Shown: positions 1 to 64,000 of the stretch, piece after piece
How positions within the stretch are numbered: position 1 is the stretch's first letter
How the letters are laid out: each line of letters starts with the position of its first letter
Origin: a virus
Lineage: Duplodnaviria; Caudoviricetes
IMG/VR virus record: IMGVR_UViG_3300028580_000062
Span: 9,428-73,427 of that record
Strand: one strand, 5' to 3'
DNA: 64,000 bases
The notes under the pieces: model-generated
What the model was told of the DNA's origin: nothing
The model's database searches: none
What the model saw: the letters and a program-made list of their open reading frames with translations, nothing else
Program-made: the position numbers and the translations under genes

Positions 1-998
1 TACTTGGGCGAGAATAAGAACACATGCTTTGAAGTGCAGTATAAGGGCCAAAAACGCCAGATGATTGAAGTGCTGAAAGGCCGCTACAACAGAGACATGG
101 ATTTCAAGGATACCGTTGACCTTGCAGCATCGGTTTGCCTCGATGAATACTTCGACAGCATTTATCCGGAGTTCCCTGTCATGAAGACCAAGGTAACCAG
201 AAAGAACATGGCAGAAAATGCCCGTCAGGCCTTTGATTACTTTGCAGGACGCAAGACGCAACCTGCAACACTGATGCTGCAGAGTTTTGGCATTCTGGAT
301 GGCGATAAAATCCGTCCGGAAGGTTCCAAGTATGCTGCTTACTTTATTGATTTACTCAAAAAGCTGCCGCCGCAGGGCGTTATCAACTATTCCGACATTT
401 TTGAGTTGAAGTTTGGCGATGTGTTTGAAGATAAGAAGTTCAAGATCAGCTTTCTGTTTACACCGATTGTATTTCTGTCTATGGTTTATGCCGGTTATGC
501 AACGATGACCCTGAAGAGTGGAACCGTCATCACGGCCTCAAATCTCGACCAGGTATCGAAGCTGGGCGTTATGGATTTGTACGAGTTCAAGTATCTGTCC
601 AGACCGGCTCAGATTTCTATGGTGGAGCTGAAGAAGCTGTTTGAGGTGCTGGATATCAATGGCGCGCTGCTGGATAATCCGAATGACCGTGAGGAAGGTG
701 TGAAACAGCTACTTGCAAAGGCTCAGGAACTGAGCAATTCCTCTGTTCTGGCTGCACGCAAGCTGCAGGAGGGCTTCGAACTCTGGGGTGAGCCGCTTGC
801 AAACGCGCAACAGGTTGATAGGATGCAGAAAGCCTGCACTGCCGTTCGTGACGAGTTCAGCAACTACTCGGCAAAATATAACACACCAGCGAAGTTGAAC
901 AACTTTAGTCTGACCGGAGAACAGGTTGATGAACTGGCAGAACAAATTGCACTCATCAAAACCGTCGCCGAGTATGTGACCTTCAAAGACTACTGTTC
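1..998 (+). pseudogene. brxC: BREX type 3 BrxC/PglY-like ATPase (DUF6079), 5' fragment (open at window edge), interrupted at 998
   Basis: ORF 4..1113 reads as a DUF6079-like protein up to ...YVTFKDYCS, then runs into AT-rich non-homologous sequence; it rejoins the 2450..3289 frame exactly; sits upstream of pglX-helicase-pglZ-brxA. Confidence 0.75.
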
Positions 999-1132
999 GT
1001 TTTGTCTACAAATGATTATATACCAAAGAAATTCAAAGCCATTGATAGAATGTCAGTTGGATTTTATGCGTAAAAACTTAAAAAATCGCATTGTTAAATT
1101 TCGATTTTGTTGATATGATTTCAATGGAATAA

Positions 1133-1160
1133 TTGATTTGCAAGTGTTATGCTATATAAT
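1133..1160 (+). promoter_or_regulatory. sigma-A-like promoter of the ClC cassette
   Basis: TTGATT (1133-1138), 16 nt, TATAAT (1155-1160), then GGAG before ATG 1174. Confidence 0.5.
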
Positions 1161-1173
1161 ATTGGAGAATTGA

Positions 1174-2418
1174 ATGATGAAAAAAATAATCAGTATAGTT
1201 GCTTTTGGTATTTTATCATTTATACTTGGAGCTGCTTCGGGGGCGATAGTATGGTTGATATTGAAAATAATGGATCTTGGCATTGAGTTTTTCTGGACTT
1301 GGCTGCCGGAAAAGTTCAACGCTGACGGCAGCCTGATATACTTCATGACGGTATGCCTCATCGGAGGATGCCTTATAGGTTTGTGGCAGAAAAAATACGG
1401 ACTGCTTCCAGATGAGCTGCCTGTAGTTTTGGGAAAGATTCACAAAGACGGTAGATACCCATATGATAATCTTCATATTCTGGCGGTGTCTGCATTGCTC
1501 CCGTTGATCTTCGGCGGGGCATTAGGACCTGAAGCAGGTCTTACCGGCATAATAGCCGGGCTTTGCTGCCTGGTAGGTGACAGACTCAGGTACAAAGGAG
1601 AAAAAGTGGCTGCGCTGGCGGAAACAGGCATGTCCGCTACGCTGGGAGTGATTTTTGGATCGCCGTTATTTGGAATAATCGACAGCCTTGAACCCGATAA
1701 TGAAAACGAACATTACAAGGCAAAGCTTGTCGATAAAAAAACCAGAATATTTGTTTATGTGTGCGGAGTAGCAGGGGGGATGTTGATCGTAAAAGGACTG
1801 ACTGCAGTCCTTGGCGGCGGAATGGGCCTTTCAAGATTTGACAGAGCACATGGCTACGGCATTGAACAGTGGAAATGGATAATCCCATTGATACTCGCAG
1901 GTATTGCCGGAGCATTTATATATTTGATATTCAATAAGCTGACATCAATGATTGGCAATAAGTTGAAAGATCACATAATTGTAAGATGCATGCTTGGCGG
2001 AGCGGTGCTTGCTTTGGTAGGCTGGTACGTACCCCTTACAATGTTGTCGGGAGAAACCGATATGGGTACAATTATGGCAGATTGGCAGACAATGAGCGTA
2101 TCGGTGCTTTTCGTTATCGCAGTGTGCAAGCTATTCCTGGTCAATTTCTGCCTGAATATGGGTTGGAGAGGTGGAAGCATATTCCCTATAATTTTCTCGG
2201 GAGTAGCCATTGGATTTGCTTTTGCACTGATGACAGGAATGGATGGGGCATATGCAGTAGCAGTTGTGTGCGGTGCCATATATGGATATATAATGAGAAA
2301 GCCTGTGACAGTTATCGCTGTGCTTCTGCTGTGCTTCCCGGTGACTTATATAGTGCCTCTCGGGATTTCAGCATTCATAGCGTCCAAAATACCGATGCCA
2401 CGCTGCCTGGTTGAATAG
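1174..2418 (+). CDS. ClC-family chloride channel/transporter (short, no CBS domain)
   Basis: 414 aa, many TM helices, GGALGPEAG and GWRGGSIFP motifs. Confidence 0.85.
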   Translation: MMKKIISIVAFGILSFILGAASGAIVWLILKIMDLGIEFFWTWLPEKFNADGSLIYFMTVCLIGGCLIGLWQKKYGLLPDELPVVLGKIHKDGRYPYDNLHILAVSALLPLIFGGALGPEAGLTGIIAGLCCLVGDRLRYKGEKVAALAETGMSATLGVIFGSPLFGIIDSLEPDNENEHYKAKLVDKKTRIFVYVCGVAGGMLIVKGLTAVLGGGMGLSRFDRAHGYGIEQWKWIIPLILAGIAGAFIYLIFNKLTSMIGNKLKDHIIVRCMLGGAVLALVGWYVPLTMLSGETDMGTIMADWQTMSVSVLFVIAVCKLFLVNFCLNMGWRGGSIFPIIFSGVAIGFAFALMTGMDGAYAVAVVCGAIYGYIMRKPVTVIAVLLLCFPVTYIVPLGISAFIASKIPMPRCLVE

Positions 2419-2449
2419 TTGAATGAAATAATTACGAAAGACAGATTGC

Positions 2450-3289
2450 TCTGCAGTTGTGAGCTATATTGCTAATATTGAGTTCCTTGATCTTGGAGCA
2501 GTTTTCAAGCAGGAGCTTGAGGCCGGAAAGGCAGCCTTTCGCGAAATCAGAGACGACATCGCAGATGGCGCTTCCGGTGAAACGGCAGCGCAGAAGGTTA
2601 CGACCGAACTGGATAAACTGAAAGATAAATACATTACGATGTACTTTGAGGAGCATAAGAAAAAGCGCCTTGACATCGAGGATGCAAAGCGCCGTGGAAA
2701 ATTGCAGGAAAGTGTTGCACTGGCAAATCTGCGCAAGCTGCGTAGCATAGAGATCCTTTCAGGTGCAAAGCTGACTGCCATTGAACAGGATATGGCTGAT
2801 CTGAAGGTCTGTTATGAACTAACACCTGTTGAGTTGAAGACAAGTCACATTTGCCCTCACTGCCACTATACCTATGGCGACAAGGCAAAAAATGTAGCCG
2901 GGCAACTGGACAACATTGATATTCGCATGGATGATTTGGTGACGGAATGGACAAATACGCTGCTCAACACAATCTCTGACCCGATTGTGGTTAGCCAGAA
3001 GGAGTACTTGAGTGCGGAACAGCAGAAGGTCATCGATGAGTTTATTTCCACCAAAACACTGCCAAAGCATGTAGACGATCACTTCGTGAATAGCATCAAG
3101 GCGCTGCTTCAGGGCTTTGAGCCAGTGGTTATCGATACGGAGGATATAGTTGCAAAGCTGGATGAGCTTGGCCCTTGTGATGTGGCTACATTCAAGAACA
3201 AGCTGAATAGCATTGTGGAGTCTTATATCAAGGGAAAAGATGCAGCTAAACTGCGTATCGTAGTGAAGCGGAAAGATAGTGAGGTGTAA
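2450..3289 (+). pseudogene. brxC: BrxC/DUF6079 C-terminal fragment
   Basis: In-frame continuation of the 5' fragment; coiled-coil and CPHC zinc motif; ends 2 nt before pglXI start. Confidence 0.75.
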
Positions 3290-3291
3290 CG

Positions 3292-5792
3292 ATGGAACCA
3301 AGAAAATTAACGAAAGAGGATATCGACAAAGTTCGCGACATTGAGGGCTTTCCGATTGCCAAGGATGAAGATATCATTGCTCTTTCAAATGCACCGTTTT
3401 ATACGGCATGTCCTAATCCATTTATAGATGAATTCATCAGGGAAAATGGGACTCCTTACGATGAAGCAACGGATGACTATCATTGCGAGCCTTTTGCTGC
3501 GGATGTAAGTGAAGGTAAATATAATCCAGTGTATAGAATGCATCCTTATCATACAAAAGTTCCTCATGCGGCAATTGTTAAATATTTGGAGCATTACACG
3601 AAACCTGGTGACCTTGTTTTTGACGGTTTTTGCGGAACGGGGATGACTGGTGTTGCAGCTCAATTATGCGGAGAGGGTAGCCTTTTTCATCCAACTGAAC
3701 CACGGAAAGCGATTATTTGTGATATTTCTCCCGAAGCTACATTTATTTCTAACGCATACAACCAATCATATAGCTTCGATAAGGTTTTTAAAGAGGCTCA
3801 AAGACTTGCAGACGAATGTGAAAAAAAGTACGGTTGGATGTATAAGACAAAAGTCGACGGTACTGTATTGGCCAATGTAGACTCTTGCGTATGGTCTGAT
3901 GTTTTCATTTGTCCGCATTGTGGGCATGAGTTCGTCTTCTGGGATGAAGCCGTGGATGTTGAAAATGGGAAAATACCTACACAGTTTAGTTGCCAATCTT
4001 GTGGTGCTAAATTGAAAAAGAATGACTGTCAGCATGCGATTGAAATTTCATATGACAAAATAATAGGAGAGACAATCAAAACCTACAAGCAAATCCCAGT
4101 GTTTATCGGATATAGTGGTGCTGCACGCGGTACCAAAAAAACCGATGAATATGACCTCGATATTATCAAAAAGATAGAGGATACTCCGGTGGAAGGCTTT
4201 ATTCCAATCGCGATTATACCAAATGGAGAAAAGACTCAAGAAGCCATTACGCGTGGAATTACACGATCATATCAATTTTACTATAAACGTTCTCTTTTGG
4301 CATTAAGTTATCTCTGGACAAATGGTAGTTTGAGAATAAAAAGTATTGTCTCAAAGCTGTTATTTAGAATGACTAAGCGATATGCATTGACATATCAAAG
4401 TGGCACATGGGGCGCAGGAGGCGGCCCTACTCCAGGAACGCTTTATATACCATCGTTGGTGAAGGAACTGAACATTATCAATCAATTCAGAGATGCAGTT
4501 CGAGATTATTCAAAGGCTTACTCAAATTATTCCGAAGGAAATGTATTGATTACAACCCAAAGTTCAACTGCGGTTCCTCAGATTCCGGATAATACTATTG
4601 ATTATATTTTTACTGACCCTCCTTTTGGAAGCAATATCATGTATTCGGAACTGAATTTTATATGGGAATCTTGGCTTAATGTATTTACGAATGAAAAAAG
4701 GGAGGCGATTGTAAGCCAACTTCATGGAAAGAATCTTTTGGATTATCAACAGTTAATGTCAAATTGTTTTTTGGAGGACTGTAGGATTCTCAAGCCTGGT
4801 CGTTGGATTACTATTGAATTTCATAATTCAAAAAATGCTGTGTGGAATTCAATTCAGGAAGCAATACAATCTGCAGGATTTGTTGTGGCAGATGTCAGAG
4901 TTTTGGATAAAAAGCGAGATAGCTTTAACCAAGTAAAAGAAGCAAGTCAGGCAATAAAACAGGATTTGGTAATTTCAGCATATAAACCTATGGGCGAGTT
5001 TCGCAAAAAATTCTCTCAAGATATTGGTAGTGAGGAAACAGTGTGGGACTTTGTCCGGCAACATCTTGAAAAGGTACCAAAAGTCGTTATTCAGGATGAT
5101 AAAATAAAAATCGTAACAGAACGTCAAGCATATTTGCTTTACGACAGAATGGTGGCATATCATATCGTGCAAGGAATTGCTGTACCTATCGACTCTACAA
5201 GTTTTTTCAGGGGACTGGATAGCAGGTATTTGAAACGCGATGACATGTATTTCCTGCCAAACCAAGTAAACGAGTATGATAAAGCTCGAATCAAGGCGGA
5301 TGTTGAGCCTATCCAATTCAGTTCAGTTTATTTGTTACAAATGAAAAAACTGCAATTTCTTGGCTTTATCAACAACTTAGCGAAGATTTTGACGGGCCAC
5401 AGACATACGCACAGCTTCAGCCAAAGTTCATGCAGGAAGTAAAGTCAGTAGATCAATATGAATCTATGCCAGAGTTAGCTGTTCTTCTTGAAGAAAACTT
5501 CCTTCAGGATGAGAAGGGCCGCTGGTATATCCCTGATGTGACCAAAGAAGGTGACGTTACCAAACTGCGTGAGAAGAATCTCTGGAAAGAGTTCGAAGGT
5601 TATATGAGCAGCAAGGGCAAGCTCAAACTGTTCCGTTCCGAAGCAGTCCGTGTGGGCTTCTCTCGGCTGTGGAAGGACAAAAACTACAAGGCCATCGTGG
5701 ACATTGCAGAGCGTCTGCCGGAGCAGACAATTCAGGAGGATGCAAATCTCTTGATGTACTACGATATTAGCTTAGGTCGTATCAAAGATTGA
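3292..5792 (+). pseudogene. pglX: BREX type 3 DNA methyltransferase PglXI, frameshifted at 5317-5326
   Basis: DGFCGTG (motif I) and FTDPPFG (motif IV), CPHC/CQSC zinc motifs; TTCAG-TTCAG duplication; deleting 5 nt joins ORF 3292 to ORF 5430..5792 (QFSLFVTNEKTAISWLYQQL...). Confidence 0.85.
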
Positions 5793-5803
5793 GGTGAAGA
5801 GGA

Positions 5804-7552
5804 ATGCTGGAAATCGGCGATTTCGCTTTTGACACGCTGGAACAAGCGAATGTGCAGGTACTGGAGAAAATTGAAGTATGGGGCTATGTTTCCTACAAGG
5901 TTTTCAATCCGGCTACCGGCCATGTCTACAAAGCGACAGAAGAACAATTGAATTCAGAAGTCGGTAGCATTCGCTACGATGAGAATTATCTGCGATATGT
6001 TGTACAGCTTTCAAAAATCAAAAACGAGACCGCCGGAGGCTTCCTTTCGTCACTGGCAAGCGGTATTATCCCGTTGCCGCATCAGCTTCATGTGCTCAAT
6101 CGCGCAATGGAGACAAACAATATCCGCTATATTCTGGCGGACGAAGTTGGTCTCGGCAAAACGATCGAAGCCGGGATGATTGTCAAAGAACTGAAGAGCC
6201 GTGGACTTGTCAGCCGAGTACTTGTGGTTTGTCCGACCGGTCTTGTAACACAGCCGTTACTGGAAACCATTGATGCCATAATGAGCGATGACAAGACCCA
6301 GAAAATCATTATCTTCACGGAGTTTGTTGCCACACAGAAATATCTGCAGGAGCTTCTGACAAATCGCGGCTTCTCTGTTACGGTCTTAAACGGTAGCATG
6401 GATATCGAAGAACGAAACGAAGCTATGCAGGAATTCAAGAACAGTACCAGTATCTTTATTTCGACTGATGCTGGTGGGGAAGGTCTCAACCTTCAGTTTG
6501 CAAATATCATCGTCAACTATGATCTGCCTTGGAACCCGATGAAAATCGAGCAGCGCTGTGGTCGTGCAGACCGTATTGGCCAGCAGAGAGACGTACATAT
6601 TTATAACTTTATCGTTTCGGATACAGTGGAAAATCGTGTGCGTGAAGTGCTGGAAGAAAAGTTGTCTGTAATTTTGAAGGAAATGGGCGTAGATAAATAC
6701 TCCGATGTTTTAGACAGCGAAGTCGCTGAGTGTGATTTTACTGAGGTCTATATGCGTTCCGTTGGTCATCCGGGACAGGTTGAAAAGAATACCTATCCGG
6801 TTGAAGCCGAGATGAAGCAGCAGCTCGCCAATGCAAAGAAATATAAGGATGTTATCCGTGAAGAAAAGGATTTGACACGTCTGGTTGGAACAGAATCTGA
6901 TTTTGATGTGGATGTGGCCCTTCGTACCATGATGACCTATTATGAGTGCTGGAAAGGCAATGACCCTCGGCTGATTGACCGTATCAGTATTGGTGATGAA
7001 GAAATTACAAAACATTTGCGGACAGAAATTCTTCAGGATAGAACAAATCCGCTGCTTTCAGTGAGCATTGCTAATTTCCCCAATGAGGCCGGTTATTTTA
7101 TGTTGTGGGAGCTTTCTATATCTGATGATGAAAGCGGAAAGCGTATTATCCCCATCTTTGTAAATGATGATATGATTTTACGTCCGATGGCAGGAAAGCG
7201 TTTGATGGATGTTTTCCTTGATGGCACCAGTCGTTTGACGATTGGAACTGCTCCAAATATAAAGGCAGAGAAATATGAAAATCTTGAGAAGCTCAGCATG
7301 GAATTCGCTTATGATACCTTCATGGAATTGAAGGGGAAGCAACTGCAGCTGAATCAGGAAAGCTATAACAAATATATGTATGCTTTAAAGCTCCGGATGG
7401 AAGCTGCTGAGCATATCGGAATAGAAAATATCCGCCGAGGCCGATTGGCGAAGCTGGAAAAAGAGAAGGCCACCATTGAATCTGAGCATAAGAAAGGTAC
7501 ACAAGTGTATCCGGACTTCCGCTTGATGCTGGCAGTCAGATTGGAGGCATAA
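5804..7552 (+). pseudogene. brxHII: BrxHII-like SNF2 helicase with in-frame internal deletion
   Basis: Motif I ILADEVGLGKT and motif Ia VVCPTGLVTQ are joined directly to the C-lobe (KIIIFTEF, STDAGGEGLNLQ, EQRCGRADRIGQ); no DEAH or SAT motif. Confidence 0.75.
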
Positions 7553-9718: not shown

Positions 9719-10140
9719 TATCATTACTGTTGTGGATGTAGATTTAACAGATTACATCCGAGCGTAGTTTACTATTAATGATCTGACGGTGTTTTGCCGT
9801 GGCAGGGATAAAGAGCAGCACCGTTTAATTTTGCCCCACTTTTTAATTATCCATATTCTGACCGAAAGGAGACCTTGTAAAGATGGCATTAACAGCAAGA
9901 ATGGCTCGTCTCAAAATGCCCAATTTCAGGTGCAGAACGAGCCGTAGGAACTATCAAAACACGGGAAATGCCTTGTTTACAGGGCCTTTTCACTACACAA
10001 ATCCTTGTATCAAAAACGTGGTCTTGATAGACTCAGCTTAATATAGAGGCTATATTTTGATGGATATGTACGATTATTTAGTTATAACTTGCAGCACAAA
10101 GGAAATGCTGTGAAATGAATTAGAACAGGAGGCCATCAGC

Positions 10141-11124
10141 ATGGACGACCGTGGAGAAGTAATTATATATCAGACTGAAGACGGTTTGACAAAAATAGAT
10201 GTCACTATGCAGGATGAAACAGTGTGGTTGAGTCAGGCAGATATGTCAAAGCTTTTTCAAACGACTAAGCAAAATGTTAGTCTGCATATAAATAATATTT
10301 TTAAGGACGGAGAACTTGACAGTGCTTCAGTTGTCAAGGAATGCTTGACAACTGGTGCTGACGGAAAAAACTATAAAACAAAATTTTATAATCTGGATGT
10401 TATCATCTCCGTTGGCTATCGTGTCAAATCCCAGCGTGGTGTTCAGTTCCGTATATGGGCAACAAACATTTTAAAGGAATACATCAAAAAAGGTTTCGCG
10501 ATGGATGATGACCGCCTGAAAGAGTTGGGCGGTGGCGGATACTTTAAGGAGCTGTTGGAAAGAATCCGAGACATCCGGGCTTCTGAAAAGGTATTTTATC
10601 GTCAGGTATTGGAAATCTATGCGACCAGTGTTGATTACAACCCTAATGCGGAAGTCTCCATACAATTTTTCAAGCGAGTACAAAACAAGATCCATTATGC
10701 CGTTTCCGGCGAGACTGCGGCGGAGGTGATCTATCATCGTGCTGACGCAGAAAAGGATTTCATGGGTCTGATGACTTTTTCAGGAGATCAGCCTACGCTC
10801 CGTGAAGCGAAGACTGCAAAGAACTATCTGAATGAAAAAGAGCTTCGCGCAATGGGCCAGCTCGTTTCCGGATATCTTGATTTTGCTGAGAGACAGGCAG
10901 AGCGTGAGATTCCGATGACGATGGAGGACTGGGCCAGACATCTTGATGGCATTTTGACCTCCACAGGAGAAAAGCTGCTGATTGGAAATGGGACTGTCAG
11001 CCATGATCAGGCAATGGACAAGGCGCAGACGGAGTATAAAAAATACAAAGCGAAAACATTGAGCAGTGTGGAGCAGGACTACCTGAATAGCATAAAGCAG
11101 CTGGAAAAGAAGAGCAAAAAATAA
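10141..11124 (+). CDS. rhuM: RhuM family (virulence protein RhuM-like) DNA-binding protein
   Basis: YNLDVIISVGYRVKSQRGVQFRIWAT signature, ERIRDIRASEK. Confidence 0.9.
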   Translation: MDDRGEVIIYQTEDGLTKIDVTMQDETVWLSQADMSKLFQTTKQNVSLHINNIFKDGELDSASVVKECLTTGADGKNYKTKFYNLDVIISVGYRVKSQRGVQFRIWATNILKEYIKKGFAMDDDRLKELGGGGYFKELLERIRDIRASEKVFYRQVLEIYATSVDYNPNAEVSIQFFKRVQNKIHYAVSGETAAEVIYHRADAEKDFMGLMTFSGDQPTLREAKTAKNYLNEKELRAMGQLVSGYLDFAERQAEREIPMTMEDWARHLDGILTSTGEKLLIGNGTVSHDQAMDKAQTEYKKYKAKTLSSVEQDYLNSIKQLEKKSKK

Positions 11125-11156
11125 TCTATCATGGCTACAGGAAAATCTATGAATAA

Positions 11157-11600
11157 GGGTTGAGACAATGGCAATCGTGGAGCAATTCCCTTGTACCAAT
11201 CCGGCGTCAAGGTGGAGACAGTGGACGCCAGACCCGGATGCCATATATAAGGTACGTTCAAACAGTGGAGCAATTCCCGCGAACGTACAAAAGCGTGTCG
11301 ATAAGTTTTCGCAAACCGAAAAAAGCGGTTGAACAATTTCCGCGAACGGATGGGCAGAAAATCGAAGGTTCACGAGAACTGGTCAATAAGGAGACATCAA
11401 GATGGAGCAATCGGGCCACGTTGAGACCGTGGTTCTGATGGAGTTACATAAATAAAAAAGCTTCAAAATAGTGCTTAACAAAGGGATTTCTGCAATTTGC
11501 CAGTTGATGAGAATCAGCTCGCTTGAGACAGAAATCCCTTCTTTTTTTAGTCTTCGGAGACAGTGAGACAATAAGAATGTTGATTTCAGGGTTGAGACTA
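11157..11600 (+). repeat. Cluster of degenerate rlmD/rumA-3'-end-like att-site remnants
   Basis: GTKGARCAATTYCC at 11177, 11265, 11328 (VEQFPCT/VEQFPRT); GTKGAGAC at 11159, 11212, 11420, 11591; GGC CAC GTT GAG ACC GTG GTT CTG ATG = GHVETVVLM at 11414-11440. Confidence 0.65.
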
Positions 11601-11687
11601 TAGAACTACTGTATCCTGACATTTGCGAGGATGCGAATGGTTGTTTTTAATCAGAACAGAAAAATGTTCTGATTGAAAGGAGACTCT

Positions 11688-12719
11688 ATGACAGACATTA
11701 ATACGATTCTTCCAAATGCAGTTGAAGGGCAGGAAGCTTTCATCCTCGACCATGGCAAAGTTGTTGATGGTGCATTAAAGTACCAAGACGAGCTAACAAG
11801 CTATGGCTGGAACATCAAGCAGTTTAACAAAATGCATGTAGGTGCCTTTGTGCTTAATAGGCATCCAGGTAAGATAACAAAGGACAGGAAATTCGAAATA
11901 TATGCAGGTGGCTATGTTGACAGCATTTCTGATCCTGACGAAGATGGAAACGTTACGGCAACCATCACTCATGCATTTAATATTGTGCCGCCAATCAAAC
12001 AAGGTGACTCTTTCATTGAGAATTTTGAGTGGAAGAGTAAAAATAAGCGGCCAAGAAGCTGGGAGCACTTCTGGAATCAATATGGCATGAACACTATAAG
12101 CTATGCGGAATATGAGAAAATCATAAATGCAGCACATTGTATTCCTGCTGGGGATGTAACCGCAGAAGTGGTGCCAGATGAGCCAGATATCACTGCAGAA
12201 GAAGTTGATGAGCTTGAGAGCACAAATGCAAACGGCTTTGATGTTGTCCTTGAGGAAGATGGTCCTATTCATGCACAAAGAGAAAAGAAGTATAGTGGTA
12301 TAGCAAGAACCATCGACTTCGAGAAGATCCAAAAGGCTAAGAATAAAACTGGTGCTTTAGGAGAAGAAATCGTACTCGATATCCTCATTCAAAAGGCAGC
12401 AGCAGAAGGTCTCAAGGCTCCCGTTCATGCATCAAAGGAAGAGGGAGATGGCCTAGGGTATGATATTCGGAGCTGGGATGCAGCTGGCAATGAAATTCAT
12501 GTTGAAGTCAAAGCATCCAGGAATAAATATGCTGACGGATTTGAAATGTCATACAACGAGGTCATGGCCTCAAAAGATGGCCGATATAAATATCGAATAT
12601 ACAGACTTTACAATCTGAATTCCAAAACGAAAGAGTGCCGGCTAAAAATTTATGACGGCCCAATTACCGAAGAGGGCTATAAATTGGTCAGTACAAAAAT
12701 TGCTGTATATCAGAAATAG
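11688..12719 (+). CDS. DUF3883 (NO VEIN C-terminal, PD-(D/E)xK-type) nuclease domain protein, putative defence
   Basis: GALGEE...GDGLGYDIRS...VEVKAS...FEMSYNE motif at the C-terminus; AAAGGAG RBS before ATG 11688. Confidence 0.75.
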   Translation: MTDINTILPNAVEGQEAFILDHGKVVDGALKYQDELTSYGWNIKQFNKMHVGAFVLNRHPGKITKDRKFEIYAGGYVDSISDPDEDGNVTATITHAFNIVPPIKQGDSFIENFEWKSKNKRPRSWEHFWNQYGMNTISYAEYEKIINAAHCIPAGDVTAEVVPDEPDITAEEVDELESTNANGFDVVLEEDGPIHAQREKKYSGIARTIDFEKIQKAKNKTGALGEEIVLDILIQKAAAEGLKAPVHASKEEGDGLGYDIRSWDAAGNEIHVEVKASRNKYADGFEMSYNEVMASKDGRYKYRIYRLYNLNSKTKECRLKIYDGPITEEGYKLVSTKIAVYQK

Positions 12720-14745: not shown

Positions 14746-14816
14746 GTATTACATGAAGTTGAATGAACAGATCTGCCGCAATGTAATTTTGTAAAGTGTA
14801 TTTCTTATTTTTTTCT

Positions 14817-15290
14817 TTATTCTTCTATTCCAATCGTCACCCCTGATTTGAATTCCATGGTGAAGTGATACCGAAACACAGTGATCTTTGGATGAGGTTT
14901 TTGTCCAATTCTGTGACTTCAGTTTTCTGCTGGCTGATGAAGTCCTGCAGTTCTTTGATCCGGTTCATGGCTTCTTCCCGGCAGTGATCGTCTATTTCGG
15001 ATTTTCTTTCTGCTCCCGGAGCCGGAAGATTTCGTCAGCGATGGCATCGTAGTCTTGCTTGCTGCTGACCTTCTTGATGAGTTCCTTTTGCAGTTCCTCC
15101 AGCCTGCTCTGGATGCCGTCAGGCGAAAGGGTATCCGCATTGACTACGGCCTTGGCGATGCTTTTCTACAGGATTTTCAGGAAGGTGCCTTTATCAGTAA
15201 GAATCTGATTAATAGCCTTAACGGTAATGTCTTGCAGAATGGTTTCGTTTACTGTCCGGTTGGTGTCGCTTTCTGTACTGGTCTGTTCGC
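14817..15290 (-). pseudogene. 3' remnant of a large serine recombinase
   Basis: Reads NRTVNETILQDITVKAINQIL*...RLEELQKELIKK...YDAIADEIFRLRE...NRIKELQDFI...IQKITV...MEFKSGVTIGIEE* with a stop and frameshifts; clearly homologous to the C-terminus of ORF 62315..63874. Confidence 0.8.
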
Positions 15291-15432: not shown

Positions 15433-15918
15433 TCACTTCCAGTCTTTCAGTTTATTTCGTAACTGCTTAATGATGATCTTCTCCCGATAGGACACAGTGG
15501 ATTGTGGCATATGAACTTTTTTTGCAATTTCACGCGTACCCACTTTGTTGGCGTAGAGAATAATAATCTCTCTGTCAACCTGAGGAAGTTCATCGACAGC
15601 GTTGTGGAGTGCTTCGTTCAGCATACGGCGGATGACTTCATCTTCAAGAGAATAATCGTCTTGAATCTCCAAACCATCATCATCCATCTTTTCGATGGAG
15701 TATGGATCGCCATATGTGTCCTTCCAAGCATGGTACTTAGGACATTCTTCACAGTTTGCCATGCAGCGATGGGTACCAAGGAAACAGCGTCTTTCTCTTT
15801 CCTGACGCTTGCGTTCCTTCCACAGGGGACCTTTATAAGCCTTATACACTTCCTCTGTGACTGTTACCGTGTGCTTCCCTACTTCAACCGTGAATCCATT
15901 CTTTTCATTTGTTGACAT
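15433..15918 (-). CDS. Sigma-70 region-4 (ECF-like) factor, paralog of 24012..24488
   Basis: VTEEVYKAY..W.ERKRQ...RC...C..C and C-terminal HTH REIAKKVHMPQSTVSYR; ATG at 15918. Confidence 0.8.
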   Translation of the reverse strand: MSTNEKNGFTVEVGKHTVTVTEEVYKAYKGPLWKERKRQERERRCFLGTHRCMANCEECPKYHAWKDTYGDPYSIEKMDDDGLEIQDDYSLEDEVIRRMLNEALHNAVDELPQVDREIIILYANKVGTREIAKKVHMPQSTVSYREKIIIKQLRNKLKDWK

Positions 15919-16274
15919 TTTTTGTCTGGACCGGAGCCAAGCGTTACTGGATCGGGGAACAGACAAAAGGAACCACTGCACGCTTGTTCGGTATTGAGCC
16001 GATCCAGATGCGCAATGGTTCCCATTGAAGAAACATTGTGTGATGCAATTACCAGCCAGCAATGATGGTCATGAGCCCTGGACTGGTACTTTGAAAATGG
16101 TCTCGCTAGATGCGAGCACCGGAGTTGATCAAACTCTGATGTGTAAATAAAGGCAGTTTATAGCGTCATGCTCGGGACGCTTTTTGCTTAATTAGAGCTT
16201 AGAATATTGCTTAGTAGTCCGTCTATGAGCCACTTTTAATGTGCTTTTGTCTATAACGTTGTCGATGATTTATA

Positions 16275-24011: not shown

Positions 24012-24488
24012 ATGAAGGAAGAAGTAAAAGAGAGATTCATTGAGATCAATGGGCAGATGGTCCAGGTTTCAGAAGAAGTATATAGGGCATTTAAGCGTCC
24101 TGCATGGGCAGAAAGACAAAGGAACAGACGTAAGTGGAGATGCAAAGCTGAAGGTAAACGCTGCATGAAAAACTGTGACGAATGCACAAGGAAAGCAGAT
24201 GGAGCGCCGCTTTCACTGGATGAATGGTATGAAGACCCAAAGGAATTCAAACAACAGGAGATTAGTTCAGAAGAGATATTTATGAGAGATCTTGCAGTTG
24301 AAGCTTTGCATCAGGCAATTTCCATGCTGGCTGATAACGATCAGGCAATTCTCATTCTCTACAGTGAAGGATTCTCTGACCACAAGATTTCTGACCGAAT
24401 TGGTATGCCGCAGACAACGGTCAGTTACAGAAGAAAGATCCTTATTAAAGCTCTACGTGAGCAGTTGAAGGATTATCACGAAGGATAA
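24012..24488 (+). CDS. Phage sigma-70 region-4 (ECF-like) factor
   Basis: VSEEVYRAF..W.ERQR...RC...C..C; HTH DHKISDRIGMPQTTVSYRR. Confidence 0.8.
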   Translation: MKEEVKERFIEINGQMVQVSEEVYRAFKRPAWAERQRNRRKWRCKAEGKRCMKNCDECTRKADGAPLSLDEWYEDPKEFKQQEISSEEIFMRDLAVEALHQAISMLADNDQAILILYSEGFSDHKISDRIGMPQTTVSYRRKILIKALREQLKDYHEG

Positions 24489-24509
24489 AGAAAAATATTT
24501 ATTCAAATT

Positions 24510-24541
24510 TTGCTCAATTTATTTCGAACTGTCCTGTGTGT
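24510..24541 (+). promoter_or_regulatory. Repeated promoter-like motif copy 1 (TTGCTCA-N13-TGTCCTGTGTGT)
   Basis: Same motif and spacing at 30190 and 60011. Confidence 0.7.
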
Positions 24542-24584
24542 ATTGGAAGGAAACAAGACAACTTCCGGAAAGATGAGGAAATCT

Positions 24585-24731
24585 ATGAAAAGCATTGAAT
24601 CAGATTCAAGGCACAAGATTACATCTGATGACGTAATCGACATCCTCCAGTTAGTAACCATGGTATCAAAGACCGTTGGTGATTGGCTGCAGATGAAAAA
24701 GGAAAGGGGAAGTTACGATGGCAAAGAATAA
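24585..24731 (+). CDS. Small hypothetical protein
   Basis: GAGGA RBS; overlaps the next gene. Confidence 0.45.
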   Translation: MKSIESDSRHKITSDDVIDILQLVTMVSKTVGDWLQMKKERGSYDGKE

Positions 24732-25011
24732 TGATATCTCGCTTGCCCTGGATGAGCTGAAGAAGTGTGGTGAAACATTAATTGCACTGTCTGAAGCCAT
24801 GAGGGGAACAGAACCACAGCCAGTAGAAGTGAAGCCAGTCAACTTCGAAGAATTGAGAGCACTCCTAGCCAAGAAGACACGCGTTAGTAAGCAGAACACA
24901 GATGCAATCCGCGAACTTCTCTTGAAGCATGGAGTAAACAAACTCTCAGAACTGAAAAAGGAAGACTACCCAACACTGATGGATGAGGCAAAGGAGCTTC
25001 CGGATGCCTGA
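24718..25011 (+). CDS. Conserved phage protein of the replication module
   Basis: EELRALLAKK...IRELLLKHGVNKLSEL; position before DUF2800. Confidence 0.7.
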   Translation: MAKNNDISLALDELKKCGETLIALSEAMRGTEPQPVEVKPVNFEELRALLAKKTRVSKQNTDAIRELLLKHGVNKLSELKKEDYPTLMDEAKELPDA

Positions 25012-26125
25012 GCAGCACGCATTTCTGTCCGCATCATCCAGTGCGAGGTGGATTGCCTGCCCGCCATCCGCCAAATTGAACGCTGGCACTGGTGGCAAAA
25101 CCAGTGACTACGCAATCCAGGGCACAGCAGCACACGCACTGTGCGAGTTCAAATTGAAGTCAGCACTTGGGATTCCAGTACGTGATCCAACAGGAGACCT
25201 CGATTGCTATGACCAGGAAATGGAAGAGTGCGCTGAAGGTTATGCGTCATTCGTCATGGAACAGGTCATGAAGGCAAAAGAGACATGCAAAGATCCAACT
25301 GTTCTGGTTGAGGAAATGCTGGATCTGTCTCGCTGGATTCCTGAATCATTCGGAACCGCGGATGCACTGATTATTGCTGACGGAACACTCACGATTGTCG
25401 ATATGAAATACGGCACGGGTATTAAGGTCGAAGGCTCATCATCACAGCTTCGGTGTTATGCACTGGGAAGTGTGGATAAGTTTGATGGCATCTATGACAT
25501 CAAGAATGTCCGTATGGTTATCTACCAGCCGCGTTTAGAGAACATCAGTGAATGTGACATGACAAAGGATGAACTGCTTGAATGGGCAGATAACATCCTG
25601 GTACCGGCAGCGAAACTTGCCTTTGTTGGTGAAGGCGAATTTGCCGCAGGTGCACATTGCCAGTTCTGCAGTGTCAAAGCCACCTGCAGGAAGCGGACAG
25701 AAGAGAACTTAGCACTGGCAAAGTATGACTTTGAAATGCCACCAACATTGAAGGATGAGGAAATTGAAGCCATCCTTCCACAATTAGATCAGCTCGTATC
25801 CTGGGCTTCCGACATTAAGGACTATGCATTGAAAGAGGCACTGTCTGGAAAGAAATGGTCTGGATACAAACTGGTTGCAGGAAGATCCAATCGTAAGTTC
25901 ACCAATGAGGATGCAGTAGCACAGGCAGTTACTGCCGCTGGCTACGACCCATACGAGAAGAGTCTTCTTGGTATCACCGCAATGACTTCTTTACTCGGTA
26001 AGAAGAAGTTTGAAGAATTACTAAGCAGTTTAGTGGATCGGCCACAGGGAAAACCGACACTGGTTCCACAAAGCGATAAGCGGCCGGAGTTGAACACGGC
26101 AGCAGATGATTTCAAAGACAAATAA
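25004..26125 (+). CDS. DUF2800 PD-(D/E)xK (Cas4-like) phage nuclease
   Basis: HAFLSASSSARWIACPPS, FGTADA, VDMKYG, HCQFC. Confidence 0.9.
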   Translation: MPEQHAFLSASSSARWIACPPSAKLNAGTGGKTSDYAIQGTAAHALCEFKLKSALGIPVRDPTGDLDCYDQEMEECAEGYASFVMEQVMKAKETCKDPTVLVEEMLDLSRWIPESFGTADALIIADGTLTIVDMKYGTGIKVEGSSSQLRCYALGSVDKFDGIYDIKNVRMVIYQPRLENISECDMTKDELLEWADNILVPAAKLAFVGEGEFAAGAHCQFCSVKATCRKRTEENLALAKYDFEMPPTLKDEEIEAILPQLDQLVSWASDIKDYALKEALSGKKWSGYKLVAGRSNRKFTNEDAVAQAVTAAGYDPYEKSLLGITAMTSLLGKKKFEELLSSLVDRPQGKPTLVPQSDKRPELNTAADDFKDK

Positions 26126-60338: not shown

Positions 60339-61904
60339 ATGACAACGATAACCAAAATTGAACCAATGAAGAAAGATCCTGAACAAAAACAGCGCGTTGC
60401 TGCATACTGCAGGGTTTCCACAAATAAAGATGACCAGTTGGAAAGCTTGGATGCTCAAAAGAAACATTACGAGCAAGTGATAAAGAGTAATGATCATTGG
60501 GCATTCGCAGGAGTTTACTGCGATGAAGGCCTTTCTGCGATAAAAATGAAGACACGTCCTGATTTGATGAGAATGCTGGATGACTGCAAACAAGGAAAAA
60601 TCGATCTTGTTCTAATAAAAAGTATTTCCCGGTTAAGTAGAAATGTGACAGATTATCTTTCTATTGTCAGAGACCTAAATTCAAGAGACATCGGTATTTT
60701 CTTTGAACGAGAGAATATCAATACGCTTAAAGAAAATGATGAGTTCATGATGTCAGTGCTTAGCAGCCTAGCAGAAAGTGAATTGGTTTCAATTTCCGGG
60801 AATGAAAAATGGGGCATCAAACGTCGATTCATGAACGGAAGCTATAAACAAAGCATTGCTCCCTATGGATACGTAATGAAAGATGGAGAGTTAGTCATCG
60901 ATGAAGATACAGCACCAGTGGTCCGGTTCATTTTCAATGAAGCCTGCTTGGGAAAAGGAATACGACATATCACAAGAGAACTCAATGTTAAGAAAATACC
61001 ATCCAGGCAAACGGATCATTGGAGTGAAACAACCGTAAAATGGATGCTAAAGAATGAACGCTATATTGGTGAGGTACTCTACCAGAAGACTTTCACAGAT
61101 GACAACTTCAAGCGTCACAACAATCGAGGGTATCGTGACCAGTATTTACTCAACGATCATCACGCAGCGATCGTTACCAGAGAACAGTTTGAAAGAACAC
61201 AAGAACTGATTGCACTTCATAGGAAAGAAAAGGGTATTGATTCAGAACATATCAATTACCAGGAAAGATATACCTTTACTGGAAAACTGATTTGTGAGCA
61301 GTGTGGATCACGTTTAAAACGAAAAAGCATCACTGGACGAAATAGAAAGAAATGTGTTATTTGGATCTGCGTTACACACTTAAACAATATAAAAAAGTGC
61401 TCAATGAAGGGTATCTCTGAGGAAGCAATTAAAAGTGCTTTCACGACAGTAGTGAACAAGCTGATTTTCAGTAAGAATGATCTTTTGATTCCTTTTGTAA
61501 AAGCGGAACGCGAGTGTGATGGTGATGGAACTCAACGGATCGTTGAAAGGATTGATCAAAAACTCGATGACAATTCTGTTAAGGCTCAGAAACTGGCAAC
61601 CCTTGTGGCCGATGACCTCTTGGAGCCAGTGAACTATCAGAAGGCTTTGAATGAGTTGTCTGCGGAATGTAATGAGTTAAATGGAAAGAAAAAAATCCTT
61701 CTGAATCAGCTCCAAAATAAGAACCTTGCGATCTCCGAAGGTAGCGAGTTGCTAAAAAGAATCCGGCAAAAGGAAGTGACTGATGAGTTTGATGATGAAC
61801 TATTCACAGAGTGCATCAAAGTTGTACACATTTATTCCAGAGATGAATTTGGCTTTGAGTTCACTTGCGGATTGACCTTCAGAGAGGGGGTGAGTTTGAA
61901 ATGA
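60339..61904 (+). CDS. Large serine recombinase 1
   Basis: AAYCRVST catalytic Ser, KSISRLSRN, CEQCG zinc ribbon, coiled coil. Confidence 0.95.
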   Translation: MTTITKIEPMKKDPEQKQRVAAYCRVSTNKDDQLESLDAQKKHYEQVIKSNDHWAFAGVYCDEGLSAIKMKTRPDLMRMLDDCKQGKIDLVLIKSISRLSRNVTDYLSIVRDLNSRDIGIFFERENINTLKENDEFMMSVLSSLAESELVSISGNEKWGIKRRFMNGSYKQSIAPYGYVMKDGELVIDEDTAPVVRFIFNEACLGKGIRHITRELNVKKIPSRQTDHWSETTVKWMLKNERYIGEVLYQKTFTDDNFKRHNNRGYRDQYLLNDHHAAIVTREQFERTQELIALHRKEKGIDSEHINYQERYTFTGKLICEQCGSRLKRKSITGRNRKKCVIWICVTHLNNIKKCSMKGISEEAIKSAFTTVVNKLIFSKNDLLIPFVKAERECDGDGTQRIVERIDQKLDDNSVKAQKLATLVADDLLEPVNYQKALNELSAECNELNGKKKILLNQLQNKNLAISEGSELLKRIRQKEVTDEFDDELFTECIKVVHIYSRDEFGFEFTCGLTFREGVSLK

Positions 61905-62308
61905 GAATAATACCATATGGATATCGAATTGAGAATGGATTGGCAGTTGCAGATGAAAATGAATCAAAAGCCCTGCAAAAGGCATTTGAATTCTATATAA
62001 ACGGTGATTCATTGCAGGCAATTGCAAACAAGCTTGGTATTAATCGATATCCTAGCGGGATGTTGAATTTGCTGGTGGACAAGCGTTACCTGGGCACAGA
62101 TTTCTATCCCTCTCTTATTAGTAAAGAGCTCTTTGATCAAGTTCAGATGGCACACCAAAACCGTATGCATCAGCATAAACGCCCGGGATTGTCGGTAAAA
62201 CTGGCAAAAGTTTATACCGACTTTGAAATGGAACCTATCGTGCAGCATTTGGACGATCCATATGCACAGGCACAATACGTTTATACATTGATAAAAACGA
62301 AGGAGTGA
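61901..62308 (+). CDS. Small recombinase-domain protein (no catalytic domain)
   Basis: IPYGYRIENG...YLGTDFYPSLISKELFDQVQ; ATGA overlap. Confidence 0.85.
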   Translation: MRIIPYGYRIENGLAVADENESKALQKAFEFYINGDSLQAIANKLGINRYPSGMLNLLVDKRYLGTDFYPSLISKELFDQVQMAHQNRMHQHKRPGLSVKLAKVYTDFEMEPIVQHLDDPYAQAQYVYTLIKTKE

Positions 62309-62314
62309 TGAGTT

Positions 62315-63874
62315 ATGGAAATGAGAAAGAATGTAATGGTTATCCCGGCGGTTAAAAAGTTTGGGAACACAGTCACCAAGGAGGAAGTCAAAAAGCTTAG
62401 CGTGGCAGCCTATTGCCGGGTATCGACTGATACGGAAGAACAAGCGACCAGCTATGATACCCAGGTAGCCCATTACAAAGAGTATATTTCGAAGAACCCA
62501 GCATGGAAGTTTGCCGGCATCTACGCAGATGATGGCATCTCGGGCACTGGGACAAAGAAAAGAGAAGAGTTCCTTCGAATGATCGATGACTGTATGGCCG
62601 GTAAGATTGACATGGTTATTACCAAGAGTATCAGCCGGTTTGCCAGAAATACGATTGATTGTCTGAAATATATCCGGCAGCTCAAAGAAAAGAACATCCC
62701 GGTTATATTCGAGAAGGAAAACATCAATACTTTGGATGCCAAGGGAGAAGTTCTGATCACAATCATGGCTTCCCTTGCACAGCAGGAAAGTGAGTCACTT
62801 TCAAAGAACGTGAAGCTGGGGCTTCAGTTCCGCTACCAGCAGGGCAAAGTTCAGATCAACACAAAGTGGTTCCTTGGGTATACGAAAGACGAGAAGGGAA
62901 ATCTGGTCATAGATCCAGAACAGGCAAAGGTTGTTAAAAGAATCTACAGGGAATACCTGGAAGGTAAAAGCTGTGCTGCAATTGCCAAAGGGCTGCAGAA
63001 GGATGAAATTCCAAATGGCTCAGGTAAAAAGAGATGGTGGGATTCCAATATCAGGCAGATTCTCATGAATGAAAAATACATGGGTGACGCCCTGCTACAG
63101 AAAACTTATTCAACCGATGTTTTGTCAAAAAAACGGATCAAAAACGAAGGAGCGGTTCCACAGTATTATGTAGAAAACAATCATGAAGCCATCATCTCAA
63201 AAGAAATTTATCATGCGGTCCAAGCGGAAAATAAAAGAAGAAACAATTTGATAGATGAGCAAAATATTCATGCAGGGTACTGCGGCAAATATGCATTGAC
63301 TGGCGTGTTGGTCTGTGGTGAATGTGGTGCACCGTATCGTAGAATTGTATGGAGCAAAAAAGGGCGGAAGGTGTCAGTTTGGAGATGTAGGACCAGGGTG
63401 CAGAAAGGCGGCAACGCTTGTCTATCACCAACAATCTATGAAGAAGACCTGCATGCTGCCATCGTTAAAGCAATCAAGGAGACATTTGGCTCACAGAACC
63501 AGATGATGAATAAGTTGCAACAAAATATCAATGATGCCATAGGGGACGATCTAGAGACGTGTGATTCAAAGCTGAAGGAATTACAGGATCAGCTGGTAAA
63601 GTGCGTCAATACAGGCAAGAACTACGAAAATCTGGCCGAAGAAATCAGAAGGCTTAAGGGGACCAAAGATAAGACGCTTGGTCAGAAGGCTGCTCAGGAT
63701 GAGCATGTAAAGCGAGTCAAAGAAATACAGCAATTCATGGCAGAGCATATCAATGATGATCTTGAGTATGATGATTCCCTGGTTCGAAAGCTGATACATC
63801 GCGTGGAAGTCAACAGTCACAACATTGTAGTGGAGTTCAAAACTGGTCTTGAAATCGAAGAAAACATTAGATAA
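62315..63874 (+). CDS. Large serine recombinase 2
   Basis: [23 protein letters not shown] zinc ribbon. Confidence 0.95.
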
Positions 63875-63879
63875 TTTGA

Positions 63880-64000
63880 GGCTTCATCAGGAAGTGTGGG
63901 CAGGAATGAGTCTTTGATATGGCAGCAGGACAGAGATATCTGAACATCTCAACATGACCATATCAAGTAAGTTGTCTATGTTTCTGAAACCGTATGCCAA
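63880..64000 (-). mobile_element. Right end of an ISL3-family IS (3' end of transposase, continues beyond the window)
   Basis: Minus strand reads LAYGFRNIDNLLDMVMLRCSDI..LP...* (stop at 63887); terminus GGCTTC at 63880. Confidence 0.75.

Follow-up and report, generated by a model that had tools for sequence, protein, structure and literature searches.

Gene order and sequence motifs at the locus

The window analyzed in this study is a stretch of 64,000 nucleotides, corresponding to bases 9428–73427 of an IMG/VR virus contig of 73,427 bases. To the left of the repeat array described here, the window contains a decaying BREX system and a rhuM-family gene (Pfam); the contig part ahead of the window carries an inverted phage replication module. 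To the right, a DUF3883 gene, a ParA gene (2.3 kb downstream of the array) and a minus-strand LSR-gene remnant are followed, in this order, by one complete phage (phage B). The 3' end of phage B encodes, in order, an endolysin, a SHOCT protein, an LSR, a 147-aa 'Recombinase'-only protein and a second LSR (Pfam). rhuM is the final gene of the left-hand element ahead of its end module, and in the tblastn map it accompanies the array in 12 of the 19 related contigs. The features of the region are listed below.

10141–11124, plus strand: rhuM-family cargo gene (Pfam PF13310, E 5e-106)
11152–11418, plus strand: conserved 267-bp terminal module, putative P arm of an rlmD-targeting LSR element (19 contigs)
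11158–11171, plus strand: outermost motif (VET segment of the preliminary description; repeat family D3), of degenerate-unit or tail-like character; left boundary of the module
11177–11197, plus strand: unit 1, 21-nt copy of the rlmD left half-site (VEQFPCT reading; PWM 25.1)
11211–11224, plus strand: second VET-like motif, a degenerate unit or tail-like remnant, 14 nt past unit 1
11265–11285, plus strand: unit 2 (VEQFPRT reading; PWM 26.7)
11297–11317, plus strand: weak degenerate unit (PWM 4.7, alone not significant)
11328–11348, plus strand: unit 3 (VEQFPRT reading here; PWM 28.7)
11367–11387, minus strand: inverted unit (PWM 15.5; fraction of window positions at 12 or more, 5e-5)
11377–11418, plus strand: inner P half-site, the most conserved stretch
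11401–11413, plus strand: shortened fourth unit, directly before the His codon and 9 nt nearer the crossover than in rlmD
11417–11418, plus strand: putative crossover dinucleotide CA, opening the His codon of the rlmD motif T-x-H-V-E
11417–11455, plus strand: rlmD-tail reading frame HVETVVLMELHK, then stop
11481–11547, plus strand: perfect 12-bp hairpin with a T-run after it, resembling a terminator, downstream of the tail (inverted repeat I3)
11591–11598, plus strand: GTKGAGAC copy beyond the conserved module, without comparative support
11673–12719, plus strand: DUF3883/NOV_C gene, cargo of the right-hand element (Pfam PF13020)
14816–15265, minus strand: C-terminal remnant (last ~150 codons) of an LSR gene (blastn, 73–81% to the LSR 3' ends of L003, L145 and L154)
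60339–63874, plus strand: phage B recombination module, LSR (521 aa), 147-aa protein and LSR (519 aa) (Pfam)
61865–62308, plus strand: 147-aa protein with the PF07508 'Recombinase' DNA-binding domain only, without catalytic domain (Pfam)

The VEQFP, GTKGAGAC and GHVETVVLM segments listed in the preliminary description were all found in place, and the flanks that it had named, rhuM (10141–11124) and DUF3883 (11673–12719), were confirmed by Pfam. Its suggestion that the segments resemble the rlmD 3' end is supported. Three copies of the 14-nt core shared by the VEQFP units are present in the 64-kb window (11177, 11265 and 11328, all on the plus strand) versus 0.19 expected, and no shuffle reached three. 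The GTKGAGAC 8-mer alone is not enriched, with five copies in 64 kb versus 3.46 expected; four of the five lie within 11159–11598. The copies at 11159 and 11212 are equally readable as degenerate unit starts, and the copy at 11591, taken previously for one more half-site, lies beyond the conserved module and is unsupported.

The internal units match rlmD over 21 nt only, and their reading frames differ. The units here read VEQFP; the single intact rlmD end that was recovered reads VDMFP. Unit 3 contains an in-frame TGA in many relatives and is therefore non-coding. The third base of the first codon of the motif at 11211–11224 is highly variable among relatives. No His-Val-Glu tail stands at the proper spacing behind the internal units (the tail-like motif of unit 1 is 8 nt too distant), and none of them is a hybrid of two arms, of either P/tail or B/P' type. 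Unit 2 sits within one 8-bp inverted repeat (11252–11259 and 11281–11288; helix columns 101–108 and 130–137). The weak unit at 11297 is spaced 32 nt from unit 2 and 31 nt from unit 3, matching the 31–32-nt period of another locus, L127 (see below). Unit 3 and the inverted unit form a 60-bp dyad, the arms of which are 18 nt apart. GHVETVVLM is encoded at 11414–11440, and the frame runs on to the stop at 11455. In the window, the array is covered by a 92-aa ORF. Scans of the region for RNAs, promoters and terminators gave nothing beyond the hairpin behind the tail, which is missed by a simple terminator scanner due to its 36-nt loop.

Several observations concern the rest of the contig. At window positions 1–3289, brxC (DUF6079) is interrupted by a chloride-channel gene (Pfam). 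Two homologous phage replication modules are located at contig bases 35–2319, ahead of the window, and at window positions 24012–26125; both have one sigma-like gene, their DUF2800 proteins are 58% identical, and they face each other across a 30-kb cargo region. Thus, at least two related phages, oriented against each other, have contributed parts to the contig. A third sigma-like gene (15433–16062, minus strand) comes after the LSR remnant 14816–15265; together, the two look like the leftover of a third, largely deleted element. The preliminary description had proposed to look for an intact rlmD upstream; rlmD (PF05958) is absent from the 9.4 kb before the window and from the whole 73-kb record. 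At 63947–63967 (minus strand), 75–95 nt past the stop codon of the last LSR, one shortened rlmD-head-like motif is fused to a His-Val-Glu start. It resembles a P/tail junction (rough chance well below 0.01 per 126 nt), and the contig ends 33 nt beyond. No further rlmD-like head or tail motifs were found on the 73-kb contig.

The module in related contigs and its boundaries

A pattern scan of viral contigs identified locus L003, and a metagenome scan together with BLAST raised the total to 19 other contigs with the array. L003 contains three units as in the window, and its homology to the window is limited to 11152–11440. When the single-unit pattern was used on the viral contigs, 10 of the 11 matches were due to chance. 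The metagenome runs come from wastewater, bioreactor, sludge, digester and groundwater habitats, which are given for context only. The array was absent from 401 genomes of the family of L044 (labelled Blautia) and from four LSR-bearing genomes; the phage collection, searched by DNA, gave weak rhuM matches only.

Positions 11152–11418 are 88–97% identical in the 19 other metagenome or virus contigs, with identical order and spacing of the units. Homology starts at 11091, 11131 or 11152–4 and stops at 11418, without any breakpoint inside, and the stretches between the internal units contain no gene and keep the same length in all 19 contigs. Among 16 non-redundant arrays, the number of minor alleles per site is 0.38 in unit 1 and 0.10 in unit 2 versus 0.6–1.2 in the spacers; as the 16 sequences are only ~10% diverged, this contrast rests on few substitutions. 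Only 2 of the 21 sites are variable in each of units 1 and 2, and no variation is seen across the 16 loci in the leading 14 nt of unit 3 or anywhere in the inverted unit (11367–11387).

The left flanks are variable. They consist of BREX and rhuM, of type I HsdR and GmrSD, of Hachiman, of one tet(M)-like gene and an MFS pump, of IS elements, or of BrxL, HEPN and DUF4357. Five independent left-flank classes end at 11091, 11131 or 11152–11154 and none ends within the array; the boundaries of L003, L201 and L140/L195, together with a joint at 11153 in run X12, support a left edge at the outermost motif. The cargo varies only outside this edge, where all replacements stop. Two cargo regions deserve separate mention. 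In L092 and L172 (oriented 2596–7040), a tet(M)/tet(O)-like gene for ribosomal protection and the gene of an MFS transporter adjoin rhuM and the array; the end of the element thus carries resistance cargo in some communities. Compared with window positions 2235–4733 and 10031–11418, L192 is 99.96% identical over part of brxC and pglX and then 91% identical over the rhuM region; this reflects a 5.3-kb deletion of the genes for the BREX helicase and pglZ, along with a mosaic history of the cargo.

On the right side, all 19 loci diverge at the CA dinucleotide 11417–11418, and at least 11 different rlmD tails follow. The tail of the window (11417–11455) is common to L176 only; every other locus has different sequence there. 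In five contigs (L201, L140, L115, L092 and L199), the right flanks are ordinary chromosomal genes, which differ from contig to contig. In four other loci they are LSR elements, with an inverted LSR pair in L003, L145 and L154 and a direct LSR in L176. The 3' end of the nearer inverted LSR gene, which is intact, is situated ~1 kb past the array in L003, L145 and L154; the corresponding last 450 nt of the LSR gene start ~3.4 kb past it here. Two contigs, L192 and L185, have sequence other than an rlmD tail after the array. At 4969–5052 of L192, and likewise in L185, the array is joined at the same CA to non-rlmD DNA, and one unit-like motif follows ~175 nt further on; these junctions may represent a secondary integration site or another kind of partner arm.

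Contigs from four public runs were placed on the window. Their loose ends fall exactly at 11417 and 11418, before 11417 in X12 and X1 and behind 11418 in X9. One contig of X12 contains the rlmD end without interruption as far as 11417, where the tail takes over, and a deletion variant of this run rejoins at 11153, the left edge of the module. In X9, one contig has only 11377–11418 in common with the window, with other DNA on both sides. In the run that covers the window best, the depth of the array is two to four times that of the right flank.

As at an att junction, the breakpoint is a fixed dinucleotide within the conserved rlmD 3' motif, and it separates one constant side (the left module) from one variable side (host or neighboring element). 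Because homology stops at the CA and different tails follow, the array can be taken as the constant, element-borne arm of an att site, with the crossover at the CA of the His codon. The previous proposal that the segments are att sites at rlmD thus stands for the last one, as the sequence from 11417 onward is in all likelihood a true LSR junction that breaks at 11417/11418, and falls for the internal units, which are not hybrid sites.

Recombinases, P-arm families and tandem elements

Homologues of the last LSR (54–58% identical) were located in 80 genome loci, 15 of which have full-length rlmD 0.3–6.6 kb from the recombinase gene; in 13 of these 15 loci the distance is 0.3–4.7 kb, and the reading frame of rlmD is complete in each. 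rlmD lies mostly on the opposite strand, converging on the LSR gene; in three loci it is on the same strand. Such LSR homologues adjoin rlmD in many Firmicutes. Free phages carry the same kind of site. The Terrisporobacter phage TPDSL_ph1 has a unit, a P site and a tail frame 5 kb past its LSR/small-protein/LSR module, and the Gardnerella phage vB_Gva_AB1 has a P/tail site with one inverted unit ~150 nt beyond. Because free phage genomes carry the tail, the replacement tail is phage-borne. The LSR/small-protein/LSR layout of phage B is also present in TPDSL_ph1, vB_Gva_AB1 and L003, and a similar small gene lies between the LSR genes of the S. suis rum phage. The 147-aa PF07508-only protein might serve as an accessory or directionality factor. 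Within the family, the genes are found in either order relative to the att site.

All P/tail junctions in the fetched loci were collected and clustered under a strict pattern, yielding 24 independent P-arm families and 63 downstream families. Direct units resembling the rlmD half-site are present at −55 to −240 in 9 of the 24 P-arm families (10 if one degenerate unit of the xIHT cluster, recognized by eye, is included), versus 0.4 expected by chance. The strict census found 18 direct and no inverted units upstream of the crossover, with one to four per stack; downstream, inverted units occur at +119 to +244 in 7 of the 63 families and direct units in none. Thus, several half-site copies stand beside the crossover with fixed polarity under the strict pattern; however, a looser motif scan disagrees, as it finds the inverted unit 11367–11387 inside the P arm of the window. 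The likeness to rlmD ends sharply at 21 nt in more than 18 independent units, and it excludes the preceding conserved Pro codon and the rlmD body.

Two other P-arm families from different genera were aligned; in these, the units and the inner P site are conserved islands and nothing is conserved further out. Ahead of the P/tail junction of L127 (4100–4330), four half-site units follow each other with a regular 31–32-nt period; the inner end of the last of them is a perfect 12-bp palindrome. The P arms of L013 and L087 contain one complete copy resembling the rlmD end; judged by eye, this copy is more suggestive of a relic. More than half of the P-arm families, including those of the S. suis rum phage and of L216, the closest relative of the P arm of phage B, have no units; the units therefore cannot be essential to the recombinase family.

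How the two sides of the junction in the window are assigned depends on these relatives. The array 11152–11418 would be the P arm of the left-hand element, because the left cargo is linked to it in most relatives and host DNA lies to its right elsewhere. The sequence from 11417 onward is most likely the tail-bearing P' arm of the right-hand element, phage B, because the tail matches L176 only and because of the layout of L216. In that locus, the LSR module of which is closely related, the order is tail end, early genes, late genes, LSRs, cargo and P arm. We infer that the site is the middle junction of two accreted elements, on a contig that ends 126 nt past the second LSR. The LSRs at 60339 and 62315, which the preliminary description had proposed for in vitro recombination, are assigned to phage B and not to the element that owns the array. 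Neither the far end of this element nor its cognate recombinase or its host was found, and the fetched ranges of the array loci contain no rlmD body. LSRs occur in the window and in L003, L145, L154, L176 and L115; no contig reaches the other end of the array-bearing element.

We also considered that the array and tail together form the intact attP of a circular phage B. This reading is not supported; in four close relatives of the second LSR, the homology breaks off at the stop codon of this gene, none of the four runs on into the contig start, and one of them, L216, has a separate and dissimilar P arm 2.4 kb further downstream.

Piling of elements at rlmD on the kilobase scale does occur in relatives, with several P/tail junctions per locus in L087, L059, L013 and L028. 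In L087 (Helcococcus kunzii) the junctions are at 1322, 2833, 6091 and 20723, and in L059 (Gemelliphila) at 11699, 13062 and 16789. These serial junctions at the rlmD locus, with spacings of 1.4–3.7 kb, represent genuine stacking of small elements or remnants and come nearer to the previously proposed cassettes than the window itself. Varying numbers of sites with element remnants between them were found only at this scale, in L087 and L059, and in none of the 19 array loci.

Proposed function of the array and comparison with known systems

Taken together, these comparisons of sequence and layout make it probable that 11152–11418 is the P arm of an LSR att site for the rlmD 3' end, belonging to the left-hand element, with the crossover at 11417–11418 and with the units as putative extra binding sites. 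In the proposed mechanism, an inverted, phage-like element, the variable cargo region of which is here BREX and rhuM, would carry the 267-bp module along from host to host and join it to an rlmD tail by strand exchange at the CA of the conserved His codon. In other hosts, the displaced rlmD tail and host DNA would lie to the right of the crossover (attR); in this contig, the tail-bearing P' arm of phage B would take their place, giving the middle junction of a tandem accretion. The VEQFP units would be copies, 21 nt long, of the left half-site of rlmD that the P arm has retained. They could act as extra sites for the recombinase or for the RD-only protein encoded between the LSR genes, in a role like that of res accessory sites, tuning synapsis, directionality or accretion.

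The function of the units is where the main alternative enters. We favor accessory binding sites for the recombinase or an RD-only paralogue over relics, with confidence a little short of even, because the units outconserve the spacers, no breakpoint falls inside the array, the census is polar, the likeness stops at 21 nt and L127 is periodic. Alternatively, the units might be inert relics. An ancestral P arm would have gained them once, as old half-sites or short duplications of such sites, for example out of accreted elements that decayed, and they would now ride beside a functional 40–50-bp P site; we consider this possible but rather unlikely. Accretion and decay are common at rlmD (L087, L059, L013 and L028; the LSR remnant 14816–15265), some P arms have a whole rlmD-end-like copy (L013/L087), unit 1 is followed after 14 nt by a tail-like motif, many P-arm families are without units, and unit 3 has stop codons while the frames differ between units. 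Integration geometry, however, unites the rlmD left half-site with the P' arm rather than with the P arm, so that scars would be expected to accumulate next to rlmD; a recombinase with a CA core of fixed polarity cannot derive the inverted units of the P' side from rlmD; and relics leave unaccounted for the sharp 21-nt limit in more than 18 independent units, the stronger conservation of units than of spacers and cargo breakpoints that never enter the array.

The preliminary description had seen in the array the half-sites left by successive local integrations and excisions, between which defense genes would be shuffled like integron cassettes. We regard this as very improbable, although the site is in all likelihood a true LSR junction in rlmD-derived sequence and the cargo beside the array differs among contigs. 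Repeated integration at rlmD is real on the kilobase scale in L087 and L059, but the 267-bp array was inherited as one block, unchanged and in the same order in 19 contigs from several hosts, and variation is confined to the outside of both edges. The suggested survey of related loci revealed cargo differences beside the array and nothing gained or lost at the internal units; no contig has a gene between the units, the contig here has no rlmD, and neither an integron integrase nor attC-like palindromes are present. DUF3883, considered as a possible cassette, has two relatives, both in unrelated contexts without att-like motifs (L209 and L210). Equally improbable are repeats unrelated to recombination, such as ParA iterons or partition sites, operators of a regulator, a small ORF or a structured RNA. 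In favor of these are the ParA gene 2.3 kb downstream, the 92-aa ORF crossing the array and the helices predicted by RNAalifold; but the array travels with the left cargo and the att junction, ParA is present in no other array locus, and the ORF is broken by TGA in relatives. The array has no Rfam match, the covariation term is only −0.51, and the two compensatory pairs come from near-duplicate sequences; neither a covarying structure nor a frame kept in relatives was found.

The res sites of Tn3, γδ and Sin also have several recombinase-binding repeats beside the crossover, mostly on one side; their accessory sites are inverted repeats within ~120 bp that bind dimers, and this binding is proven. 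The putative sites here differ in being mostly single and direct, with only one dyad. Canonical LSR sites are not known to have accessory sites. The array resembles the sites of phiC31, Bxb1 and A118 in its two-base crossover, in the hybrid attL and attR and in the lack of long identity between the partners; unlike them, it has ~270 bp conserved on one side, with three to four direct and one inverted half-site copies. The canonical LSR attP is described as a simple 40–50-bp site (bioRxiv 10.1101/2025.05.02.651858).

Serine integrases of streptococcal ICEs are known to act at the same gene. The preliminary description had named rlmD as the hotspot of ICEs and prophages with triple serine recombinases in streptococci; this is inaccurate, as rumA is the target of single serine integrases in streptococcal ICEs, and the triplets target mutT, traG and hsdM (PMC4701971). 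attP of the rumA ICEs is located within the integrase gene int, whose 3' end and that of rumA are exchanged without keeping the frame (Ambroset et al. 2016, PMC4701971). LSR integration is site-specific in the 3' part of the gene in both cases; here, in contrast, the element gives an in-frame replacement tail, and its P arm is non-coding and repeat-rich. Two-integrase prophages at rum (rlmD) and phage-ICE tandems have been described in streptococci (Phi-m46.1/phi-Ssu_rum type; Sci Adv 2026, PMC13651849; PMC4288039). They share with the present locus the target gene, the LSR/small-protein/LSR layout downstream of the lysis genes and the side-by-side piling by site-specific accretion with a middle att site. 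By contrast, the S. suis phage examined has no units, whereas the array here is repeat-rich, and the bacteria here are from wastewater or digesters, with LSRs 54–58% identical. The rum papers report short att cores, either one 8-bp motif or a GA dinucleotide, and do not describe arms of repeated half-sites (PMC13651849; PMC4288039); a full-text literature search on LSR accessory sites gave no mention of half-site arrays in element arms either.

Tandem accretion and decayed elements of CIME type have been reported (Pavlovic 2004; Bellanger 2011, both as cited in PMC13651849). Repeated att sites at one locus and decayed neighbors, such as the LSR remnant 14816–15265, are common features; however, accretion leaves whole att sites that are separated by remnants and vary in number among strains, whereas the array is compact, invariant in layout and element-borne. 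Like integron cassette arrays, the locus has variable defense or resistance cargo beside one recombination site; unlike them, it has no tyrosine integron integrase (Pfam of neighboring genes), no attC hairpins and no genes between the repeats. LSR integration at rumA/rlmD and tandem accretion there are therefore already published, and what is new here is the long, conserved and polar half-site arrays in the element arm.

More tentatively, some LSRs, regarded so far as requiring simple 40–50-bp sites only, might use long structured arms, with half-site arrays that are direct before and inverted after the crossover. By analogy with res, extra LSR subunits or a paralogue without catalytic domain might bind such arrays, forming a complex that controls direction, partner choice or the stacking of elements at rlmD; we regard the two proposals together as a speculative possibility. 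LSRs are prized for genome engineering because their sites are short and need no accessory DNA, and a widespread natural, rlmD-targeting family with ordered, polar half-site copies in the element-side arm would be an exception. Half-site arrays could explain how a single hotspot gene stays intact while many different elements, among them phages, defense islands and resistance islands, use it in common and stack there. The 267-bp module provides a precise end marker for cargo-rich elements (BREX, type I RM, Hachiman and tet(M)-like) in wastewater and digester communities, and it gives the crossover point of these elements to the base.
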